Of a stretch of DNA of 64,000 nucleotides, positions 47,249-63,656 are shown in pieces. The DNA is from a virus. Its lineage: Duplodnaviria > Caudoviricetes. The notes under the pieces are model-generated. The model saw only the letters and a list, made by a program, of their open reading frames with translations. It was not told the origin of the DNA and searched no databases. Numbering within the stretch: position 1 is the first letter of the stretch; every line of letters begins with the position of its first letter. The position numbers and the translations under genes were made by a program. The stretch is from the IMG/VR virus record IMGVR_UViG_3300029288_005871, positions 1 through 64,000 of that record; one strand, given 5' to 3'.

Positions 47249-48865
47249 TCACCAAATACCACCTCCCGCAAAAGATTCTAAAACAACCGCTTTTTTGTTT
47301 TCAACATCAGTATCAAAAAACTTCAGGTCAACACTACCTACCGCATTACCCTTGGTCTTGGAAACATAAAGCCAGCCATTATCAGTCATCTTGATCTTAT
47401 GGGGATCATCAGCATCTTTTTGCCTGACTACAATCAAAACATCAGTCGAGTCCTGCTTGAAGGAAGCGGAACCGGCTATATCGTCAGAAGTCGGAGCAGT
47501 TTCTTTCTTTTGCTCTTTAGCCCTTTTCCTCAGATGGGCGATAACCATGATGGCCATCTTTTTTTCCTTGGTGATAAACCTCAACCTTTTTAAGACATTC
47601 GCCTGCTCCTGCAAATAATTAGACCTGTCGGTAACAAAATAACCGATATGGTCGATAATAACCAAGTCATAATGCTCCTCCAAAGAATTTATCGTCTTTT
47701 CCAGATCCTGGATGTTCTCAATATCCCTGTCAACAAACAGGTCGATATAACTTTCCTTATCAGCTAAATCCTCCTTGGCCAACTCCCTGTATGGCTTATC
47801 CAGCCTGATTGATGCCAGCATCTCCACAATCTTGTTCCCTGTTTCTAAAGCAATATACAGGACTTTTTTCTTCTGCCTGGCGACATTGACAGCAAAATTA
47901 CAAGCCATAGTGGTCTTACCGACATTAGTATCGCCGGTAAAACAGTAAAGGTTGCCAGGAATAAACCCGACTATCAGGTCATCTAAAGAAGGAAACCCTG
48001 TCTTGGGAGCTATCTTCTCGAATTCCCTTTCTTTTAACCTCTCTTCTACTACCTCTGATACCTTTCTGGGAACCTTACTGGTATTTTTCTTGTTTAGGTC
48101 ATAATACCTGACTGCCTGCCTGAAAATCGTGTCTACCTCATGCTGTGTTAATGGCGGGGTATAATTTCTGCCAATGTTAACCACCATGTCATAAACATTC
48201 CTCTTGTCAAGCCTGTTAAGAAGGCTTCTTGCCAGCCTGAATAAACCATCATTTCTCTCCCCTGCTCCCAAAAACAGGTAGTCGTTGATGTTAACCAGAC
48301 TACTGGTCAGTCTTTTAACTTCTCCAGCAACCTCTGGTGTTGAGGAAAGCGATGGCATGTTTTTTAAGTTTTCCTTTGTCGGCGGGAAAACCCATTCGTA
48401 TTTCAACTCTTGGTTGTCAACTTTCCTAATGGTTGGCGGAATGATGACATAGCCTCCTTCGCTCCTGACATCAATGTTTTTTCCGGCAATATTTACCCTG
48501 TTGCCATAACCTTCTTCAAACTTCAGGAAGAAATGCCTGCCGCCGGTTCCAGTCCTGCTGATCACCGTAGATTTCATCTTAGTGACTAGATCGTTGGACA
48601 AACCGCTTTTTTTAGCACTGTCATCGTCTATAACCATAATGCCGGATAACTTTCCGGTGATTACTGCCACCCCATGTTCTGTTTCGGAAAACCACTTCTC
48701 TAACTCCTCGTCTGAAGCCAACCTGCTTCTATAGGGAACAACTTCGGCAATGGCTGGTGTCTTATTGTTGTTGACCGGAAAGACCGACCATCCGATTTCC
48801 TTATACCTTTTCGCCCATTTGTAAACTTGGTTCATACAATACCTTTCTCTTTGAGTGATGCCCAA
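47249..48865 (-). CDS. Bifunctional Prim-Pol primase fused to a DnaB-like SF4 helicase
   Basis: GWSVFPV, VIDDD, TGGRHFF, DVRSEGGYVI.PP; GDTNVGKTT, IIDHI, IAH, IAGS..QDS. Confidence 0.9.
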   Translation of the reverse strand: MGITQRERYCMNQVYKWAKRYKEIGWSVFPVNNNKTPAIAEVVPYRSRLASDEELEKWFSETEHGVAVITGKLSGIMVIDDDSAKKSGLSNDLVTKMKSTVISRTGTGGRHFFLKFEEGYGNRVNIAGKNIDVRSEGGYVIIPPTIRKVDNQELKYEWVFPPTKENLKNMPSLSSTPEVAGEVKRLTSSLVNINDYLFLGAGERNDGLFRLARSLLNRLDKRNVYDMVVNIGRNYTPPLTQHEVDTIFRQAVRYYDLNKKNTSKVPRKVSEVVEERLKEREFEKIAPKTGFPSLDDLIVGFIPGNLYCFTGDTNVGKTTMACNFAVNVARQKKKVLYIALETGNKIVEMLASIRLDKPYRELAKEDLADKESYIDLFVDRDIENIQDLEKTINSLEEHYDLVIIDHIGYFVTDRSNYLQEQANVLKRLRFITKEKKMAIMVIAHLRKRAKEQKKETAPTSDDIAGSASFKQDSTDVLIVVRQKDADDPHKIKMTDNGWLYVSKTKGNAVGSVDLKFFDTDVENKKAVVLESFAGGGIW

Positions 48866-49746
48866 TAACGGTCATACCTGTCCCTCATGCCGCCTTTTTC
48901 TGGGTGGAAACTCTTAATCGCAAAAGACTGGAACTCATCCCATTCTGGAATATGACCTCTGGTAACATCCATATTCAACCAACGGGTGAGGGTAAAATAC
49001 ATCGTCTTATGCCTTGGATACAACCGCTTCATCTCTCCTCCTTTAACCAGTTCCAAAAGCTCGGAATGCTTTCTCAAAACATATTCCAACCAGATACGGT
49101 TATTGCAGGCAATGTTATAAAGTTCCTGGTTGGTACAGGGAACCATGGCTGTTTTTGCGGAAAGAGGTTCACTTTCAACATTTACCTTTTTCTTTTTTAT
49201 GTTGTTTTTTTGTTTGACTGAATTGGGGGAACCGTTTGTGGAAAGGGGGCTTTTTTGGAGGGGTAATATGTATTTTACAAGAGGGGGGGTATTATTAATA
49301 TATATGGGGGGAGATTTAGGGGAACCTTTTTTGCCAGCTAGTAGGCTTTTTCCTACTAGTAGGCTTTTTCCTACTACCCCCTTGGAATAAGAATGGGGCT
49401 TTATAAAGCCAAAAACCCTGCCTACTAGTAGGCTTTTTCCTACTACCCATCGAGAATATGTTGTATTGAAGCTCCAAACCTTAGTACCTAGTAGGCTTTT
49501 TCCTACTAGTAGGCTTTTTCCTACTAGCTGATCCAAAATTTCCTTTACTGACGGTCTGGAGATGTGGGTAAGTTTTTGAAAATCTGTCAAAGAAATGGCA
49601 TTTTCTTTTTTACCTTCTCCAAGTGTTTTTAAAAGCACCACCCAAATGACTTTCCATTCATTTCCAGACAAATGGAGAGAACATAGCTTTTCAGCTATTT
49701 TAGGAGATATAACGATACTGCCATTTTCTATCTGGGCATTTTCCAT
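48832..49746 (-). CDS. Phage replication initiator, lambda O-like
   Basis: N-terminal LSGNEWKV..LLKT.G..K..IS..F..T wHTH resembling lambda O; internal iterons. Confidence 0.75.
   Translation of the reverse strand: MENAQIENGSIVISPKIAEKLCSLHLSGNEWKVIWVVLLKTLGEGKKENAISLTDFQKLTHISRPSVKEILDQLVGKSLLVGKSLLGTKVWSFNTTYSRWVVGKSLLVGRVFGFIKPHSYSKGVVGKSLLVGKSLLAGKKGSPKSPPIYINNTPPLVKYILPLQKSPLSTNGSPNSVKQKNNIKKKKVNVESEPLSAKTAMVPCTNQELYNIACNNRIWLEYVLRKHSELLELVKGGEMKRLYPRHKTMYFTLTRWLNMDVTRGHIPEWDEFQSFAIKSFHPEKGGMRDRYDRYWASLKEKGIV
49338..49523. repeat. Five identical 18-bp iterons CTAGTAGGCTTTTTCCTA (putative replication origin)
   Basis: Copies at 49338, 49356, 49425, 49488 and 49506, inside the O-like gene. 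Confidence 0.85.
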
Positions 49747-52149: not shown

Positions 52150-52258
52150 AATTTAGTCTGCATCGATCTGATGCAACCTGTCAGTTTAGCTTTAAAAGCA
52201 TTAATCTGATGCAAGTATTATTATCTTGCATCAATCTGATGCCATTGATCTGATGCAA
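51853..52258. repeat. Nine copies of a palindromic GCAT(Y)(R)ATCTGATGC motif
   Basis: ATCTGATG cores at 51860, 51914, 51954, 51968, 51986, 52166, 52204, 52234, 52248. Confidence 0.85.
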
Positions 52259-52267
52259 CCTGTCAGT

Positions 52268-52441
52268 TTAAATCTTGTTAATTGATTTTAATGATTCTTG
52301 TTTTTTTAATTCTTTCTCTTTAGAAATATCTTTACGAATAAGATCAAGAATATAAGAAGAAAAGGTTGTATAGCCTTCTACAGGAAGTCTTTCTTTGATT
52401 TCAGAAGCAAATTCATTAGGAATAGTAAGAGATATTCTCAT
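52268..52441 (-). CDS. Ribbon-helix-helix protein (57 aa; not in ORF track)
   Basis: MRISLTIPNEFASEIKERLPVEGYTTFSSYILDLIRK; paralog of the N-terminus of 51589-52149. Confidence 0.7.
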   Translation of the reverse strand: MRISLTIPNEFASEIKERLPVEGYTTFSSYILDLIRKDISKEKELKKQESLKSINKI

Positions 52442-52479: not shown

Positions 52480-52864
52480 TAAGTAACCTATTACATCTTG
52501 TCATTACCTTTTGGAAGAATCTGGCACAGATTTGGAGGAATCCACCTTACCTTGACTGTAGATATTTTTTGTATTTCAGGGGGTAGGGGTGTCATGTTCA
52601 TGACGTAAATTAAATAATTTACGACATAGTTTTAGCTTTGATTTAATTATTTTATTTATTATTTATATATAAATAATCTTATAATAATCTTTTAAAGTTT
52701 TATTTTTTTAAGATATCTTATATATATTGTACGATATATTAAAGATTAAAATAAATATAGTTATTCCTTTAATTTCTTTTTGTAACAATCTATTTTTATC
52801 ATTTTAAATACTATAGGTAAAATAGGCTTTTTTATTATTCTTTTTTTTAGCTTCAATTTGCCTA

Positions 52865-52893
52865 TTGACAGGTTGATTTTCCTATGTTATATT
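52865..52893 (+). promoter_or_regulatory. Rightward sigma70-type early promoter
   Basis: TTGACA-17-TATATT with TGn extension. Confidence 0.7.
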
Positions 52894-52937
52894 ATATAAG
52901 AGATTAAAAGTTATAAGTTTAAGAAAGCACTAAAAAC

Positions 52938-53132
52938 ATGATACAATTTATAGATTTCATACCTCATATTTTAATAGTATTATTCTTTTTTATCCTCATA
53001 GTAACAGGTATCAACAGCGTTGATTATAGACCTCAACAGCTTAAACCCAATTATTCCAAGAAAAACAAAAAGACTACCAGGCTTATTCCCATTCATTCAA
53101 AGGACGGGCTTACTTATCTTGAATTAAATTAA
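52938..53132 (+). CDS. Small membrane protein
   Basis: N-terminal TM segment; first gene after the promoter. Confidence 0.55.
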   Translation: MIQFIDFIPHILIVLFFFILIVTGINSVDYRPQQLKPNYSKKNKKTTRLIPIHSKDGLTYLELN

Positions 53133-53137
53133 ACAAG

Positions 53138-53323
53138 GTGGTGATATTTATGGACTATGTACATATAAACATTAAAGTATCTAGGAATTCATCAAATAAG
53201 CTAGGAATTATTATTTTATCAATCTTTACTATTTATATGCTTTGTCAATTCAGCAGAGCATGGGGCAGTAAAGAAGGTTACACACAAGCTATAAATGAGT
53301 TAAGAATAGAACAAGGCAAGTAA
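53138..53323 (+). CDS. Small membrane protein
   Basis: Central TM segment. Confidence 0.5.
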   Translation: MVIFMDYVHINIKVSRNSSNKLGIIILSIFTIYMLCQFSRAWGSKEGYTQAINELRIEQGK

Positions 53324-53676
53324 AGCTTTGACTATTGGCTTCGTATTCTTAACATACGAGGCCAAAAGCTAAAACTTTAAAAACTAGCACATTAATAATT
53401 TAATACTATCAACCCTATAAACTAGAGCAAGCGGGAAGGATTAAAATGTCTAAAAAAGACTATACAAAAATAGCGGATATCTTTAAAAATAACCGCTTTA
53501 ATAGTAGAAAATTTAAAGAGTATATAGAACAATAAGCAGATTATAAACTTACCTATCTAGTGGTGAGCTTGTCGAACCATTAAATAGGCTCATTACAAAA
53601 AGTTATAAATCGCTTGCTCTGATTTATGGGGTTGATAATCACTGGCAGATATAAGGGTATAGCGGGAAGGTAAAAC

Positions 53677-53979
53677 ATGACTGAATACTATAAATTAGTT
53701 ATTGATAAAACAGCTCGACCAATGGGAAATAATAAGGAATGGTCAAGATACGATCAGGAAATAAAATACTTTAAAAGTATAGAGGAAGCAAAAAAATATG
53801 TAAAAGATCAATATTTTTATTGCAAAACAAAGTACAAAACTTTTAATGATAATGAAGAAGGCCAAACTGGTTGGATTTATGCTTTTAAAAGTGATCCCGC
53901 TAGTTATGATGATTGTAAACATTATGAACAACACTGGATAAACTTATTTAGAATACATTCAAAACCATGTTTATTCTAA
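53677..53979 (+). CDS. Hypothetical early protein
   Basis: 100 aa; Shine-Dalgarno present; enclosed by an inverted repeat. Confidence 0.75.
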   Translation: MTEYYKLVIDKTARPMGNNKEWSRYDQEIKYFKSIEEAKKYVKDQYFYCKTKYKTFNDNEEGQTGWIYAFKSDPASYDDCKHYEQHWINLFRIHSKPCLF

Positions 53980-54054
53980 AACATTTATAGCTATACCCTT
54001 ATATCTGCTAGTGATACTTATATCTTTATACCTGGCAAGCTAGGAAGGAAAACC

Positions 54055-54375
54055 ATGCACAACGAAACAATAAACATATGGACTGCTGGAGCGTTAGAAA
54101 CCCGTAAAATATCTATTGTAAACAATGCAACCGATATTTTAGAGCTGATAAAAATAGGCAAGAAGCTAAATAATTTCTATACCCATTCATGTAATGGGTA
54201 TAATTCAGAGAAATATGATCGTTTAGCTTTAAAATGGGAGAAAAAAGCCCAAGAGATAACCAAACGTATGAAAGTATATATTTACTTTCAAACTGACCCA
54301 AGAGGCGGAACTATCTATATAGATAATAAACCAATACCAAACAATAATTATACGCAAGCTGTATTTTTAGGATAA
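54055..54375 (+). CDS. Hypothetical early protein
   Basis: 106 aa, CNG..QTDPRG; enclosed by an inverted repeat. Confidence 0.75.
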   Translation: MHNETINIWTAGALETRKISIVNNATDILELIKIGKKLNNFYTHSCNGYNSEKYDRLALKWEKKAQEITKRMKVYIYFQTDPRGGTIYIDNKPIPNNNYTQAVFLG

Positions 54376-54505
54376 TAAATAAGCCTTGCGGGATAGCTTG
54401 AGTTCGCAAGGCTTCAAGCTATCCAATAAAAAACAATATTAAAACATTAAATAGCTTGCCAGATATAAAGATATAACAATATAAACAAAAGGGAGGTGAT
54501 TATAT

Positions 54506-55114
54506 ATGATTTTAGATAAAAAAATTATGGGTGTTTGTTCGATAGCTTCAACAGATGAAACACGGCCTATTCTAACAGGTGTATTACTAAAAGATAACAA
54601 GGCTATTGCAACGGACGGTTATTCACTTATTGAAACAGAATTGCCACATATTGACAATGTGGAAACTAAACTGCCTCCAACGGGCAACCAATATATAAAC
54701 GGCGAAACCATGCTTATATCAGCTGTGCAATTATCTAAAGTTCTTACTAATATTCCGAACAAACCGAAGCTACCTATTTTAGGTTACGCTTGGACTGCTA
54801 AAAGTTCAAATGAAAAAACCGTTAAAATTGTATCAAGCGACTTGGAAACAACAAACGCACCGGAAATAATGACTATTGAAGGTAATTATCCAGATTATAA
54901 CAAAGTTAAACCTGTAACAGAAGTTAAAGCTAAAATAACGGTAAACGCTAAATATCTTATAAAGCTTTTACAGGCTGTCATTAAAACAGATCCCGATCAA
55001 ATCAATAATATTGTAACAATCGAGGTTCGATCAGAAAAAGAACCAATAGTTATCAAAAACGGTAACGGGGAAAATTCAAAAACTTATGCTATGCAAATGC
55101 CTTGCAGAGTTTAA
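54506..55114 (+). CDS. Truncated DNA polymerase III beta-clamp-like protein
   Basis: STDETRPILTGV, IATDGY.L, IEGNYPDY..V, VNAKYL; 202 aa. Confidence 0.78.
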   Translation: MILDKKIMGVCSIASTDETRPILTGVLLKDNKAIATDGYSLIETELPHIDNVETKLPPTGNQYINGETMLISAVQLSKVLTNIPNKPKLPILGYAWTAKSSNEKTVKIVSSDLETTNAPEIMTIEGNYPDYNKVKPVTEVKAKITVNAKYLIKLLQAVIKTDPDQINNIVTIEVRSEKEPIVIKNGNGENSKTYAMQMPCRV

Positions 55115-55287
55115 GGCTTTACTATAACCATCTGTTACAGGTGGTTATAGATAAAATCTTAAATTTCTAAAATTAAAATAATGCTAGTAAAACCTTATAG
55201 TAAATTTAGGCTCAAAGCTAAAGGCAACCGAAATCCCGTCCTACAGCTTTTAGGCCACTAGCCTATAGAATTGGAGGTGATTAAATT

Positions 55288-55467
55288 ATGGACTACTATT
55301 ATAGACAATACTTAAAAAGGCATAATCTTGACCAAACCACTACATCAACTAATAAGTCAATAGACGTATACAAACAACTAAGCGACTACGATAAACCTAA
55401 AAAAGAAAGATGGCTTGATAGCGCAATCAACAAGATCAATAACGGCTACCTGATCGAGACTTATTGA
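55288..55467 (+). CDS. Small hypothetical protein (59 aa; not in ORF track)
   Basis: GGAGGTGA Shine-Dalgarno. Confidence 0.55.
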   Translation: MDYYYRQYLKRHNLDQTTTSTNKSIDVYKQLSDYDKPKKERWLDSAINKINNGYLIETY

Positions 55468-55474
55468 CTACCAT

Positions 55475-55513
55475 AAAACCACTGGCTATTTTTAATCCGG
55501 CTGGTGGTTTTTT
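55475..55513 (+). terminator. Putative intrinsic terminator
   Basis: AAAACCACTGGCT..GGCTGGTGGTTTT plus a T run. Confidence 0.5.
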
Positions 55514-55540
55514 ATTCCTTCTTTTACCTTGCTCTACCTC

Positions 55541-55569
55541 TTGACTTTCTTATTATAATATGTTATTAT
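55541..55569 (+). promoter_or_regulatory. Putative sigma70-type promoter
   Basis: TTGACT-17-TATTAT with TGn extension. Confidence 0.5.
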
Positions 55570-55600
55570 ACTTACAACAATAGTTTAATGGTTTTAAAAC

Positions 55601-56170
55601 ATGATACAAACTCAATTACCACTTTCATCTATTGCCGGTAACGAAGTAGCCAAACGTGCTATAGAAATCTCTTTAACCGGCAACCATTCTATAAACTTTA
55701 TAGGCAATACCGAGGCTATTCTACTTTCCAACCGAGCTAGATTTTTAGGTTTAAATTCTAAATCTTTAAAACCGTGTTCTTGCGGTAACTTTAAAGATCC
55801 TAATAACGCTTGCTCCTGTACTCCTGAACAATTACAGACTCACTACAACCAACTGGAAAACCTACAGGCTGATCTTACCATCTATACTACCAAACCAACC
55901 TATGAGCAGATTATACGGGCTTACAATAACCAGAATGAGGCCGAGTTAACCTTGCTCGAACGGGTAAAACAGGCTAAGACAAGAGAGATAAAAATAGACC
56001 TGCCTAAAATAGATAGTTTACTATCTCAAGCTACTAAAACATTATTACTCGATCAACTTCAATTCCTAAAAGTGTTAGAAATATCTAAAACCATAGCCAA
56101 ACTTGCCAATTCCCCAGAAGTAGAAAACCAGCACTTAGCAGAAGCACTACAATACAGGTTTAAAACCTAA
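55601..56170 (+). CDS. Mini ComM/YifB (Mg-chelatase-like) protein lacking the ATPase core
   Basis: IAGNEVAKRAIEI..GNH, PCSCG..C.C, ISKTIA.L..H.AEALQYR. Confidence 0.7.
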   Translation: MIQTQLPLSSIAGNEVAKRAIEISLTGNHSINFIGNTEAILLSNRARFLGLNSKSLKPCSCGNFKDPNNACSCTPEQLQTHYNQLENLQADLTIYTTKPTYEQIIRAYNNQNEAELTLLERVKQAKTREIKIDLPKIDSLLSQATKTLLLDQLQFLKVLEISKTIAKLANSPEVENQHLAEALQYRFKT

Positions 56171-56187
56171 AAAGGAGGTGATAATTT

Positions 56188-56409
56188 ATGATTGAGCCAA
56201 TTACAAAAAACATGAAAGAATATCTGGAATGGCAAGATAAATATGGTGTTACTAAATTTATTGATGATAAAACAGGTGAAGGCCATAGAGGGGTAATAGT
56301 ACAAAACAATGGGACAGAAGCGATTGTTTATGGTTTAACAGGAAAATATGTAAACCAATTAGTAAAAATTAAAGAAGTAAATCCTGACCAGTGGGCAATA
56401 ACTTATTAA
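56188..56409 (+). CDS. Hypothetical early protein
   Basis: AAAGGAGGTGA Shine-Dalgarno. Confidence 0.7.
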   Translation: MIEPITKNMKEYLEWQDKYGVTKFIDDKTGEGHRGVIVQNNGTEAIVYGLTGKYVNQLVKIKEVNPDQWAITY

Positions 56410-61857: not shown

Positions 61858-62505
61858 ATGGCAGAAGCCAAAGATAAATCATTAACTACTGTTTCCAAGG
61901 AATGGCTTAACGAACACGCCGACCTTGGTATAGAAACCATTACTTCAAGCGACCTGCCGGTTCCCAGACTTTCGCTAGTCCAAAAGACTTCAACCAAATG
62001 TATTCTCAGGGATGGCAATAACGCCAAAGAGGGTCTTTTTTATTATGCCGGTACCAAGGAGCAATCTGAAACATTCCCTTGCGCCTTGTTATCAGTCAAA
62101 AAAGAGTTTAAGCCGTCTTTCACTAACAAGGAACAGATGGAAGAAGTCTGGACTTTTATCGGTGCTACCGAAAAAGACTGGCTGCCTTTCATTTTTTCCT
62201 GTAGACGGACTTCCCTAAACGGAGCTAAAAGCTTCATCGCCAACGTCAAAATGAGCCATGTGCCGATGTTCTCCTTAAAGGTAGTCTTAGAATCACGCTA
62301 TATCCAGAGCCAAAAGGGGAATTTCTACATAGTTGCCTTTACAGACATTGGTTATCGGGAAAGCCAGGAACAGTTGTTACTGCTTTCTAACCTAGCTAAA
62401 AAATACAAGGCTTATGAGCCGATGGGTGGGGAAGATGTCCTAGAGGAAGAAATACCGCCAATAGAAGAAACAGAGGGTAATCCATCAGGTGATATGCCAT
62501 TTTAA
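61858..62505 (+). CDS. Probable single-stranded DNA-binding protein
   Basis: DLPVPRLSLVQ motif; acidic tail ending DMPF, like SSB C-terminal tips. Confidence 0.6.
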   Translation: MAEAKDKSLTTVSKEWLNEHADLGIETITSSDLPVPRLSLVQKTSTKCILRDGNNAKEGLFYYAGTKEQSETFPCALLSVKKEFKPSFTNKEQMEEVWTFIGATEKDWLPFIFSCRRTSLNGAKSFIANVKMSHVPMFSLKVVLESRYIQSQKGNFYIVAFTDIGYRESQEQLLLLSNLAKKYKAYEPMGGEDVLEEEIPPIEETEGNPSGDMPF

Positions 62506-63656
62506 CCTTTTATAACTGCCAAAGGTATCAGTTTTACTTTAATTTTGACTAACTCCTGTTGGTTAGCCATAACTGTATCTATGTCTTTATATGCTCCAGG
62601 AGCTTCATCTAAATCCTGTATACTTCTGGGCTTGCCTAAAATACTTTCCATTTTTTTTTGTTCTTTTTCAAGATTTAATGTTCTTCTTGCTTCATTCCTG
62701 CCCATTTTCCTGCCAGCTCCATGGGAACAGGACTTAAAACTTTCCTCATTACCTAATCCTTCGACAATATAACTGGTTGTACCCATTGAGCCAGGAATAA
62801 TACCAGTTAATCCTTGGGTTGCCTTTGTTGCCCCTTTCCTATGAACTAAAACATTCTTACCGAAGTGATTTTCCAAAGTAGCATAGTTGTGGGCAATATT
62901 TATCATTGATTCCCATTCCATTGAAAGTTCTTCGGACATAATATCTAAGATTCTATCCATCATTAATTTTCTATTGGCTAAAGCAAAATCAACACAATAA
63001 GTCATTGCCTTAAAATATTCTTCGCCTTCTTTGGTATCTATTGGTAAAAATGATAATTCTTTATCAGGTACATCAGATTGCCATTTTTCACATAAGGCTA
63101 AAGCCTTTTTATGGTATTCAGTTGCGGTTTTCAAACCGAAGTTGCGACTACCTGAGTGAAGCATTATCCAAATAAACCCATCATCGCCTTTTTGGATTTC
63201 AATGAAATGGTTGCCTCCGCCTAAAGTACCTATCTGGTATTGAGCAGACTGTAATTCTTTTTGGATTATCTCAATATCAGGAGCTTTATCAAACCCTTCC
63301 CATTCCTGCTTTTCTTTGTGGTGGTTAAATCCAACTGGTACAGCTTTTCTAATTTCTCCCATAATTTCTTTTATTGTTTCGGTTGGTAATTCTTTCAAAG
63401 AAGTTTTAACAGCTACCATTCCACAACCGATATCTACTCCCACTAAAGAAGGAATTACTACGTATTTAGTAGCCACAACTGATCCTATACTTGCCCCGAT
63501 TCCTAAATGACCATCAGGCATTAAAGCAGTATGGCTGTATAGAAAAGGTAAAGAACTTACTTTTACCATTTGTTCAATACATTGTTCTTCTATTGAATTT
63601 TGGGTAGAAAATACCTTTAAGGGTACTTTCATTTCTTCAGATTTGATTACATACAT
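62502..63656 (-). CDS. rtcB: RtcB family 3'-phosphate/5'-OH RNA ligase
   Basis: MPDGH.G, GVDIGCGM, GTLGGGNHFIE, HSGSR, HRKGAT, PGSMG, SHGAGR, DEAP.AYK. Confidence 0.96.
   Translation of the reverse strand: MYVIKSEEMKVPLKVFSTQNSIEEQCIEQMVKVSSLPFLYSHTALMPDGHLGIGASIGSVVATKYVVIPSLVGVDIGCGMVAVKTSLKELPTETIKEIMGEIRKAVPVGFNHHKEKQEWEGFDKAPDIEIIQKELQSAQYQIGTLGGGNHFIEIQKGDDGFIWIMLHSGSRNFGLKTATEYHKKALALCEKWQSDVPDKELSFLPIDTKEGEEYFKAMTYCVDFALANRKLMMDRILDIMSEELSMEWESMINIAHNYATLENHFGKNVLVHRKGATKATQGLTGIIPGSMGTTSYIVEGLGNEESFKSCSHGAGRKMGRNEARRTLNLEKEQKKMESILGKPRSIQDLDEAPGAYKDIDTVMANQQELVKIKVKLIPLAVIKG

Follow-up and report, generated by a model that had tools for sequence, protein, structure and literature searches.

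In ribosomal RNA operons, the sequences flanking the 16S and 23S rRNAs pair across units of several hundred to thousands of nucleotides into helices of at least two turns, and several such units follow one another on one precursor, for which the helix is the entry point of processing (PMC6582327; PMC4838370); these stems are cut by RNase III (PMC6582327). The early polycistronic transcripts of phage T7 (sites R0.3 to R1.3) and of the Bacillus phage SP82 are likewise punctuated by helices of RNase III size, where an internal loop or bulge in the middle of the helix can limit cutting so that a protective structure remains (Panganiban & Whiteley 1983, as cited in PMC4838370; PMC1540722). Substrates of the Escherichia coli enzyme typically span two helical turns, and internal loops or bulges limit it to one-strand cutting, leaving protective hairpins (PMC1540722). 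Furthermore, RNase III of Bacillus subtilis cuts, with a 2-nt stagger, long-range intramolecular mRNA duplexes formed by segments hundreds of nucleotides apart, as described in 2025 (PMC11780869). Pairing between the untranslated ends of one message, controlling nuclease access or translation, has been described for hbs in B. subtilis (PMC5737220) and icaR in Staphylococcus aureus (PMC3868564), and the 23S rRNA IVS of Coxiella burnetii provides a case of a small ORF enclosed by a stem and excised by RNase III from a longer RNA (PMC4990558).

At the DNA level, integron cassettes are tandem single small genes, each with an imperfect palindrome, the attC site. This site, a single local palindrome with conserved R boxes (RYYYAAC / GTTRRRY), lies at the cassette's 3′ end, and its use needs IntI.

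Here we describe the start of an early operon in an uncultured landfill phage, where three neighbouring small genes each lie between mutually pairing sequences of 25–27 bases. The window, i.e. the whole stretch of DNA that was analysed, covers positions 1 to 64,000 of the 82,383-base record IMGVR_UViG_3300029288_005871. As in the rRNA operons, the flanks of successive units pair into helices of at least two turns; here, however, no stable RNA is enclosed, the units being small protein-coding ORFs with ribosome sites, in a phage, with helices 0–4 nt apart and a cleavage that is putative. Whereas the T7 and SP82 sites are local intergenic hairpins, the pairing strands of our locus are 177–409 nt apart with a gene enclosed, and both product ends would pair to each other. 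The B. subtilis duplexes resemble it in their span but are scattered, single and carried by cellular mRNAs, whereas the arrays described here are tandem, proceed gene by gene and are conserved within a group of phages. The hbs and icaR interactions are about 14 bp or shorter, monocistronic and not arrayed, and the Coxiella IVS behaves as a selfish insert within rRNA, whereas here the context is an mRNA operon whose enclosed genes vary. Unlike attC, the arms flank the gene, show no consistent R-box core and are accompanied by no tyrosine recombinase. No published description of such arrays was found.

Three gene-enclosing inverted-repeat pairs at the start of an early operon

The features of the locus, all on the + strand, are as follows.

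52865–52893, +: rightward early operon, predicted promoter (TTGACA and TATATT spaced by 17 nt, the second hexamer preceded by TG)
53321–53380, +: local stem-loop just upstream of module A (-22.0 kcal/mol, z = -5.3)
53407–53433, +: left (5′) arm of module A, 27 nt; partner 53611–53637, 24/27 complementary
53434–53535, +: module A ribosome site (GGAAGG, 53434–53439) and 29-aa ORF (53446–53535)
53611–53637, +: right (3′) arm of module A, 27 nt; adjoins the module B left arm
53638–53663, +: left arm of module B, 26 nt; partner 53990–54015, 25/26 complementary
53664–53979, +: module B ribosome site (GGGAAGG) and 100-aa ORF (53677–53979)
53990–54015, +: right arm of module B, 26 nt; begins 10 nt past the stop codon
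54018–54042, +: left arm of module C, 25 nt; partner 54452–54476, 24/25 complementary
54043–54375, +: module C ribosome site (GGAAGG) and 106-aa ORF (54055–54375)
54383–54426, +: two interleaved, mutually exclusive hairpins in loop C, past the stop codon and ahead of the right arm
54452–54476, +: right arm of module C, 25 nt; 29 nt ahead of the ATG of the clamp-like gene
54506–55114, +: 202-aa sliding-clamp-like gene, next on the predicted transcript and outside any long-range stem
55113–55162, +: local stem-loop after the clamp-like gene (-20.2 kcal/mol, z = -6.9)

These coordinates and counts confirm what an earlier note on this DNA had reported from the letters, namely three inverted-repeat pairs, each around one ORF with its ribosome site. 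The abutment that it described is found between A-right and B-left, with no gap (53637/53638), and between B-right and C-left, with two bases between them (54015/54018), as is the GGAAGG Shine-Dalgarno after each left arm (53434–53439, 53665–53670 and 54043–54048), where the arm's last base lies 13–14 nt before the ATG. With right arms starting at least 10 nt after the stop codon, all arms fall outside the translated region. Each helix holds one to three non-Watson-Crick positions: counted from the outer end, module A has a U-G at position 10 and a C-A plus a U-G at positions 16–17 (positions 11–12 from the loop side), the sole defect of module B is a G-U on the sense strand at position 7, and that of module C is a C-A at position 14, 12 bp from the loop side. 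The five mismatches are without exception transitions, and the partial G-U compatibility claimed for the sense strand amounts to three G-U against two C-A.

Ranked among all long-range inverted repeats of the 82,383-base record, the three pairs take the first three places. The best pair in each of 12 block-wise Markov shuffles of the record reached 17–21 matches, against the 24–25 observed three times side by side, and a chance origin of the three pairs is excluded. All three helices are present in both the MFE and the centroid folds of the 1,096-nt sense RNA, and at 27, 26 and 25 bp they have the length of RNase III substrates (~20–22 bp, two turns, or more; PMC1540722). Copies of the arms of at least 11 bases elsewhere in the record are limited to four 11-base matches, all of the A+T-rich C arms, and the module C arm sequence resembles the module B arms in the opposite order (D17, I22). 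A link of the arms to the repeat array at ~64.1 kb was rejected, with zero words shared, and no Rfam family scored above noise in 52800–56300. An insertion sequence or MITE was also discarded: the arms do not recur apart from these four C-arm matches, the modules abut without duplicated flanks, and the enclosed ORFs match no transposase family.

The predicted promoter at 52865–52893 has 11/12 hexamer matches, a match to consensus only; no other strong + strand promoter lies ahead of the modules, the following one being at 55541–55569. Between it and the last arm, neither a + strand terminator-like site nor a + strand promoter-like site with more than 9/12 matches was found, and all arms are predicted to lie within one transcription unit. 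Among the sequencing runs listed with this stretch, none was of RNA. None of the three enclosed ORFs matched a Pfam or PHROG family. The 29-aa ORF of module A is a shortened relative of the 63-aa gene in the first module of a related contig, L009: its 14 N-terminal residues are 57% identical to that gene (E = 2e-4 for the pair), and the DNA between its stop and the right arm is alignable with L009. The motif AAGTTATAAAYCG precedes the right arm of module A and stands at the equivalent place in L009 and in another contig, L019; tblastn gave no support for a DUF8033 gene remnant in module A, this short DNA motif before the right arm being all that is common. The gene B protein, with 12 relatives at 47–71% identity, all metagenomic, is a small alpha/beta protein with a conserved YDDCKHYEQHW motif, and its model (pLDDT 84) had zero matches among PDB folds at E <= 0.001. 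The gene C protein (6 relatives, 43–80% identity; model pLDDT 68) combines a helical N-terminal part with a beta hairpin and a conserved QxDPRGGTIYxD motif. In loop C, the hairpin AAGCCTTGCG / CGCAAGGCTT is interleaved with GGATAGCTTGA / TCAAGCTATCC; the region folds at -19.4 kcal/mol (z = -3.5) and no U run follows. The clamp-like protein matches phrog_947, DNA polymerase processivity factor (E = 1.4e-13), and Pfam DNA_pol3_beta at E = 2.5e-4, under Pfam's cut-off.

Local intergenic hairpins form a second class of elements in these operons. They comprise 22–24 bp with one bulged base ~11 bp from the base, resembling the T7 and SP82 class of RNase III sites, and occupy positions equivalent to those of the long-range stems, for instance after the gene-B homologue in contig L008. 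The base sequence of the stem-loop at 53321–53380 is identical to that of the elements at 55113–55162 and in L008.

Recurrence, covariation and helix geometry in related phages

Related contigs were located through homologues of the enclosed genes, and the layout is present in at least five other metagenomic phage contigs carrying them. The stems found are listed below.

L009: three abutting stems, 25–26 nt
L019: four abutting stems, 26–31 nt
L008: two stems
L024/L025: two stems, of 27 bp and ~30 bp
L011/L012: a perfect 25-mer and a 14-bp stem that encloses the gene-B homologue
L007 and L015: a single 19-nt stem in each

Neighbouring helices are separated by 0–4 nt, and the arrays of L007, L019 and L024 are preceded by a promoter and followed by a terminator or by the next promoter. 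Single-protein scans of viral contigs returned L006 and L007 only, profile scans of metagenome and viral contigs added only L022 and L023, both stemless, and a 'distant' blastn of 52900–56200 against 50,697 phage records gave zero matches. At 7 of 11 loci the gene-B homologue is stemless, which shows that this gene does not as such depend on a stem, and 'one stem, one gene' is not a strict rule since two stems, the third pair of L019 and the second of L008, enclose no ORF. In L009 and L019, the sole SD-like words (GGAG, GAGG, GGGA) are found within the left arm, in its inner half, 11–12 nt before the ATG; this placement agrees with translational control at least as well as with the simple release of messages.

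A whole-module MAFFT alignment left the arms out of register, so a script compared the stems one position at a time to count covariation. Among the stems around gene-B homologues in the window, L009 and L019, only 5–10 of 25–26 letters are common per arm, and the comparisons give 13, 19 and 15 doubly compensated pairs; module A and the first module of L009 give 10. Compensatory change of the kind that marks rRNA-type stalks is thus present (13–19 doubly compensated pairs), and as base-pair covariation it supports pairing in single-stranded DNA equally. Pairing is kept at 85–100%, with arm letters at chance-level identity and enclosed proteins 57–67% identical. On the gene's strand, the stem imperfections comprise 26 G-U against 11 A-C (one-sided p = 0.01), an excess that is modest and for which strand-biased mutation could account in part.

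The position of the imperfections is also constrained. A defect occurs at positions 11–12 from the loop-side end in 12 of the 15 long stems, for which random placement gives P ~1e-5, or 7e-5 when any adjacent position pair is allowed, and four stems have in common a 2x2 internal loop, 5′-UAAU/5′-AACA, with UAAU always in the 5′ arm. A BHB or archaeal splicing-type motif was rejected, the defects being 2x2 loops or single mismatches and not two 3-nt bulges 4 bp apart. Judged from these sequence comparisons, the helices are under selection for pairing, with fixed polarity and geometry.

The earlier note had also proposed that each gene is a cassette captured into a hairpin able to excise or invert. 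In its wider form, this explanation holds that the genes are inverted or deleted by recombination between the arms, or exchanged between phages, which would vary the early module. Inverted repeats of 25–27 bp are long enough for homologous recombination. Module content does vary among the related phages, the third module holding different genes in the window and in L009 and some modules holding no ORF, and a right arm related to that of the first L009 module closes a different, DUF8033-like gene in the upstream module of L019. This last case partly meets the note's expectation of conserved arms around different genes, but it is the only one, and elsewhere it is the pairing, not the arm sequence, that is conserved. 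Moreover, the arms are private to each pair and thus offer no common site to a site-specific recombinase, and no serine or tyrosine recombinase gene is present, no Resolvase or Phage_integrase domain having been found in the 82-kb record. The ~17 enclosed genes of 8 loci are all in the sense orientation, the asymmetric UAAU/AACA loop is never flipped, as inversion would make it, and recombination leaves the fixed position of the arm imperfections unexplained. No joint, inversion or deletion was seen in contigs of four DNA runs (landfill, wastewater, biofilm), a weak argument as contigs hide rare forms. Altogether, we regard excision, inversion or exchange of cassettes as highly improbable. Two specific candidates of this kind were set aside: a Hin/Gin/Cin-type invertible segment or shufflon, for which there is no recombinase and no common site, the three pairs differing in sequence, and an integron attC, as the arms flank the ORF rather than follow it, the record holds zero tyrosine recombinases, and an R′-like word was seen (by eye) in one L019 stem only, unmatched in the other stems.

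The repeats could also be functionless traces of gene arrival, left by insertion into the loop of an intergenic hairpin or by duplication of a module. These operons are rich in intergenic hairpins, which are possible landing sites, the resemblance between the B and C arms suggests duplication, and the arms commonly begin with ATCA and end with TGAT. Unselected repeats would decay, however, whereas the pairing persists at the level given above despite chance-level arm letters, and the fixed defect position and the G-U excess point to selection; of all the explanations considered, this one seems to us the least credible.

Candidate processing of the early transcript

The remaining proposal of the earlier note, an mRNA folded like a pre-rRNA, is the one favoured by the pairing conserved with changed letters, the G-U excess, the fixed defect and the single predicted transcription unit; in its second half, RNase III would release monocistronic units. 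We consider it fairly likely that sense-RNA stems of RNase III substrate size punctuate the early transcript, leaving end-clamped single-gene messages. The stems are probably selected mRNA folds that let each gene's message be cut out with its ends held closed. We infer that they would act at the RNA and not the DNA level, with RNase III as the enzyme and with end-clamping and stabilisation as the consequence.

One transcript from the promoter at 52865–52893 would carry two small ORFs, the local hairpin, the three modules and the clamp-like gene. Once transcribed, each 3′ arm would pair with its 5′ arm into a helix of 25–27 bp, so that the loop contains the gene with its ribosome site and the three helices adjoin one another. 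With two turns or more, such a helix would be a substrate for the host's RNase III, which may cut near the conserved defect, ~11–12 bp from the loop side. Cleavage there would divide the polycistronic RNA into messages of one gene each; their two termini would still be paired and, as a result, protected against exonucleases that attack from either end. This scheme assumes that the host has an RNase III of suitable specificity; no RNase III or dsRBD gene was found in the phage record, which is 73% complete.

The helices could instead be real RNA structures that work uncut, the 5′/3′ pairing closing the fully transcribed message and either limiting ribosome loading to a burst or keeping out nucleases of mRNA decay, for example RNase Y, E or J. 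Such uncut helices draw equal support from all the structural and covariation evidence, the left arms of the window end right at the ribosome site, and those of L009 and L019 have the SD-like words within them. Precedents exist as well: a 14-bp 5′/3′-UTR interaction modulates RNase Y cleavage of the hbs mRNA (PMC5737220), pairing of the icaR UTRs controls translation (PMC3868564), and a bulge-helix-bulge motif can allow E. coli RNase III to bind without cutting (PMC1540722). Nevertheless, 25–27 bp exceeds what occlusion needs, and helices of this size are cut by RNase III with little sequence requirement, so that escape would need special features (PMC1540722). In addition, the ORF-less stems would have nothing to regulate, and the conserved central defect matches known single-cut RNase III sites. 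We hold a function without cutting to be unlikely, although it deserves more weight than the recombination and gene-arrival scenarios.

A more speculative and rather improbable extension combines both kinds of action in a self-closing message. The 5′ arm would stay free and ribosomes would load only until the 3′ arm is made, after which the clamp would form next to or over the ribosome site, so that a possibly toxic host-takeover protein would be produced in a metered burst while the end-protected RNA persists; in its boldest version, the phage's own RtcB ligase (gene at 62502–63656) would join the ends into a circular mRNA.

Implications for phage early genes

No part of phage genomes is less well understood than the early genes, which serve in host takeover and anti-defence, and outside T7 and T4 little is known of what sets their dose. 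If the stems do punctuate the early transcript as we favour, an arrangement with a helix for every gene would represent a novel organisation of a polycistronic message, in which the processing, the stability and perhaps the translation window of each gene would be independent of its neighbours. Inverted repeats that abut, are private to each pair and have their defect at one helical turn from the loop would offer a simple signature for early modules and gene boundaries in uncultured phages, and could serve in synthetic operons as natural insulator parts. For RNase III biochemistry, direct handles would be provided by the common UAAU/AACA loop and by the constant position of the defect.

Gene-enclosing inverted repeats of the early module

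Three neighbouring early genes of the phage (modules A, B and C) are each enclosed by two mutually pairing arms:

53407-53433 / 53611-53637: pair A, 24/27 complementary, enclosing a 29-aa ORF read from the sequence (53446-53535)
53638-53663 / 53990-54015: pair B, 25/26 complementary, enclosing a 100-aa ORF (gene B, 53677-53979)
54018-54042 / 54452-54476: pair C, 24/25 complementary, enclosing a 106-aa ORF (gene C, 54055-54375)

These pairs, described in the earlier note with one ORF and one GGAAGG word each, are present in the sequence far beyond chance: they are the top three long-range inverted repeats of the whole 82,383-base IMG/VR record (73% complete; the window is its bases 1-64000), with 18 matches for the next best, and the maxima of 12 block-wise Markov shuffles were 17-21 matches. 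The right arm of pair A meets the left arm of pair B with zero gap, 2 bases separate pairs B and C, and GGAAGG lies directly 3' of every left arm, with 13-14 nt from arm to ATG. Searching the whole record revealed no other copies of the arms, except that the A+T-rich C arms have four matches of 11 bases, and none of the three enclosed proteins matched a Pfam or PHROG family. All three helices were recovered in the MFE and centroid folds of the 1,096-nt sense RNA, and also in the antisense RNA, because inverted repeats fold on either strand. Within loop C, 3' of the gene C stop, two hairpins of 10 and 11 bp interleave in an a b a' b' arrangement (54383-54426); they exclude each other or form a pseudoknot, with no U-run downstream.

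The record originates from a landfill metagenome; near-identical pieces turned up in a second landfill run as well as in runs from wastewater and biofilm. Minus-strand genes run for about 50 kb and stop near 52.1 kb; a divergent control region comes next, and plus-strand genes begin at 52.9 kb, where the following features were located:

52865-52893 (+): predicted promoter, near-consensus TTGACA, 17 nt, TATATT, with TG
54506-55114: sliding-clamp-like gene, 202 aa (phrog_947, E = 1.4e-13; Pfam DNA_pol3_beta below cut-off)
about 55478-55515: terminator-like hairpin and T-run, read from the sequence, which looks like the end of the unit
55541-55569 (+): next strong promoter, by promoter prediction

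From the first promoter to the last arm, neither terminator-like sites nor promoter-like sites with >9/12 matches were found on the plus strand. Given this absence, the promoter and the terminator-like hairpin, a single transcript is predicted, carrying in order orf64, orf61, a local hairpin, modules A-B-C, the clamp-like gene, a local hairpin, orf59 and the terminator.

The clamp-like protein has only about half the usual length of a DNA polymerase sliding clamp. In the divergent control region (52160-52275), GATCTGATGCAACCTGTCAGTTTA occurs twice in direct orientation, with GATCTGATGC as a third, incomplete word; they look like operators beside the leftward genes. Repeated palindromic units (CTAGTAGGCTTTTTCCTACTAG) cluster at 49335-49530, in or beside the minus-strand ORF 48832-49746. 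Just past the second early promoter begins a 189-aa protein (55601-56170) in which a Mg-chelatase/ComM-type AAA+ protein is represented by its C-terminal parts only (PF13335, E = 1.7e-8; PF01078, E = 4.6e-8). A full-length RtcB-type RNA ligase gene lies at 62502-63656 (-) (PF01139, E = 2.8e-111, 388-aa open frame). RtcB ligates ends carrying a 3'-phosphate or cyclic phosphate to 5'-OH ends and is usually interpreted in phages as a tRNA repair enzyme; the 5'-P and 3'-OH ends that RNase III leaves are not joined by it.

Stems in related phage contigs

The gene B protein has 12 relatives, all metagenomic (47-71% identity), and the gene C protein six. Scanning the DNA around these homologues, where obtainable, for long-range complementarity revealed stems in the following metagenomic phage contigs:

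L009: three abutting stems, 3611-3636/3944-3969; 3969-3993/4313-4337 (enclosing the gene-B homologue); 4340-4365/4583-4608
L019 (1.6 kb): four abutting stems, 224-250/572-598 (enclosing the gene-B homologue); 600-626/864-890; 893-918/999-1024 (80-nt loop without ORF); 1029-1059/1257-1287
L008: two abutting stems, one without ORF
L024/L025 (via the gene-C homologue): two genes within a 27-nt stem, followed by an abutting ~30-bp stem with a single gene
L011/L012: two genes within a perfect 25-mer; the gene-B homologue within a 14-bp stem
L007, L015: one 19-nt stem each, enclosing a neighbour gene of the homologue

At the edge of L019, an apparent right arm would belong to a fifth stem, the rest of which lies off the contig. 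The gene-B homologue itself is unenclosed in 7 of 11 loci; the stems are therefore a trait of this phage group's early module, not bound to one gene. Downstream, the arrays of L007, L009, L019 and L024 are bounded by a terminator or the next promoter; upstream, by a promoter, or by a terminator-like hairpin in L009.

Many arms open with (T)ATCA and close with TGAT(A), giving TGAT-A-ATCA at module junctions (window 53407-53412, 53632-53643; L019 224-229, 592-605; L024 1735-1740, 2565-2570), which could reflect common module ancestry or a recognition element at the helix base.

Pairing, strand bias and helix defects

Among the gene-B stems of the window, L009 and L019, only 5-10 of 25-26 arm positions are in common, which is chance level, whereas the enclosed proteins are 57-67% identical. 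These stems are nevertheless 88-96% paired, with 13, 19 and 15 positions doubly changed with pairing kept in the pairwise comparisons; module A and the first L009 module likewise differ by 10 such changes. These comparisons indicate that selection is on pairing and not on letters, the arms drifting no less freely than neutral sites yet remaining complementary.

On the gene strand, the imperfections of 17 stems comprise 26 G-U, 11 A-C and 15 transversion-type, an excess of G-U over A-C (one-sided p = 0.01). Counted from the end next to the loop, an imperfection occupies position 11 or 12 in 12 of 15 long stems (random-placement P ~1e-5; ~7e-5 allowing any adjacent position pair); this holds for window module A at both positions and for module C at position 12, but not for module B. 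Four stems (L009 pairs 2 and 3, L019 pairs 1 and 2) share a 2x2 internal loop, 5'-UAAU-3' / 5'-AACA-3', with A-A and A-C mismatches and a G-U two to six pairs outward. UAAU lies in the 5' arm in all four, no flipped form was seen, and the enclosed genes are in sense orientation throughout.

This fixed polarity bears on the alternative that the arms act in DNA, as cassettes inverting, excising or exchanging through arm-arm recombination, since inversion would yield the flipped loop. Module gene content does vary between phages, but nothing indicates such a mechanism: the arms are private to each pair, the record holds no serine or tyrosine recombinase gene, the enclosed ORFs match no transposase family, the modules carry no target duplications and, as weak, contig-level evidence, no rearranged contigs were found in four DNA runs. 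The excisable or invertible cassettes of the earlier note are thus disfavoured. Of the gene swaps between conserved arms that it suggested looking for, there is one partial case: a right arm of L009 module 1 and one of L019 are related and close different genes; the other arms have diverged, with only pairing kept. Modules therefore turn over between phages, with no sign that the arms drive this turnover.

Intergenic local hairpins form a second class of helices (window 53321-53380, 55113-55162; L008 1386-1440, 1815-1863, 2171-2238), whose base is conserved (AGGYTTTAC ... GATAARRYYTTAA) while the apex varies. The five folded into 22-24 bp with one bulged 3'-arm base ~11 bp from the base (z = -5.3 to -7.9). 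In L008, one lies 3' of the gene-B homologue, in the place taken by a long-range arm in the window. Equivalent intergenic places are thus occupied by two kinds of helix, each of about two turns with a central defect. The local hairpins probably provide these operons with a second type of processing site.

Proposed processing of the early transcript

While the structure and conservation of the stems are solid, we infer their function from published RNase III substrate features and precedents: each helix is most likely a target of host RNase III, with the cut close to the central defect. Substrates of the E. coli enzyme typically span two helical turns, and internal loops or bulges can restrict it to one phosphodiester, the remaining hairpins guarding against 3' exonucleases (PMC1540722). 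Stems flanking 16S and 23S rRNA are RNase III cut sites (PMC6582327; PMC4838370), and long-range intramolecular mRNA duplexes are cut by the B. subtilis enzyme (PMC11780869). A host enzyme is assumed since no RNase III or dsRBD protein gene was found in the 73% complete record. Such cuts would break the early transcript up into RNAs of one gene each, the ends of every RNA staying paired with each other.

The main rival is that the helices are real in RNA but uncut, end-to-end pairing governing ribosome loading or nuclease access. Certain motifs allow RNase III binding without cutting (PMC1540722), and end-to-end UTR pairing has precedents in hbs (PMC5737220) and icaR (PMC3868564). In favour of this rival, the left arm in the window sits right at the ribosome site, and SD-like words fall within the arm in L009 and L019.

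In the literature, we found no description of a phage operon with a tandem series of long-range helices, one per gene. Each component has a precedent: stems cut by RNase III, the punctuation of T7 transcripts, and pairing between 5' and 3' UTRs.
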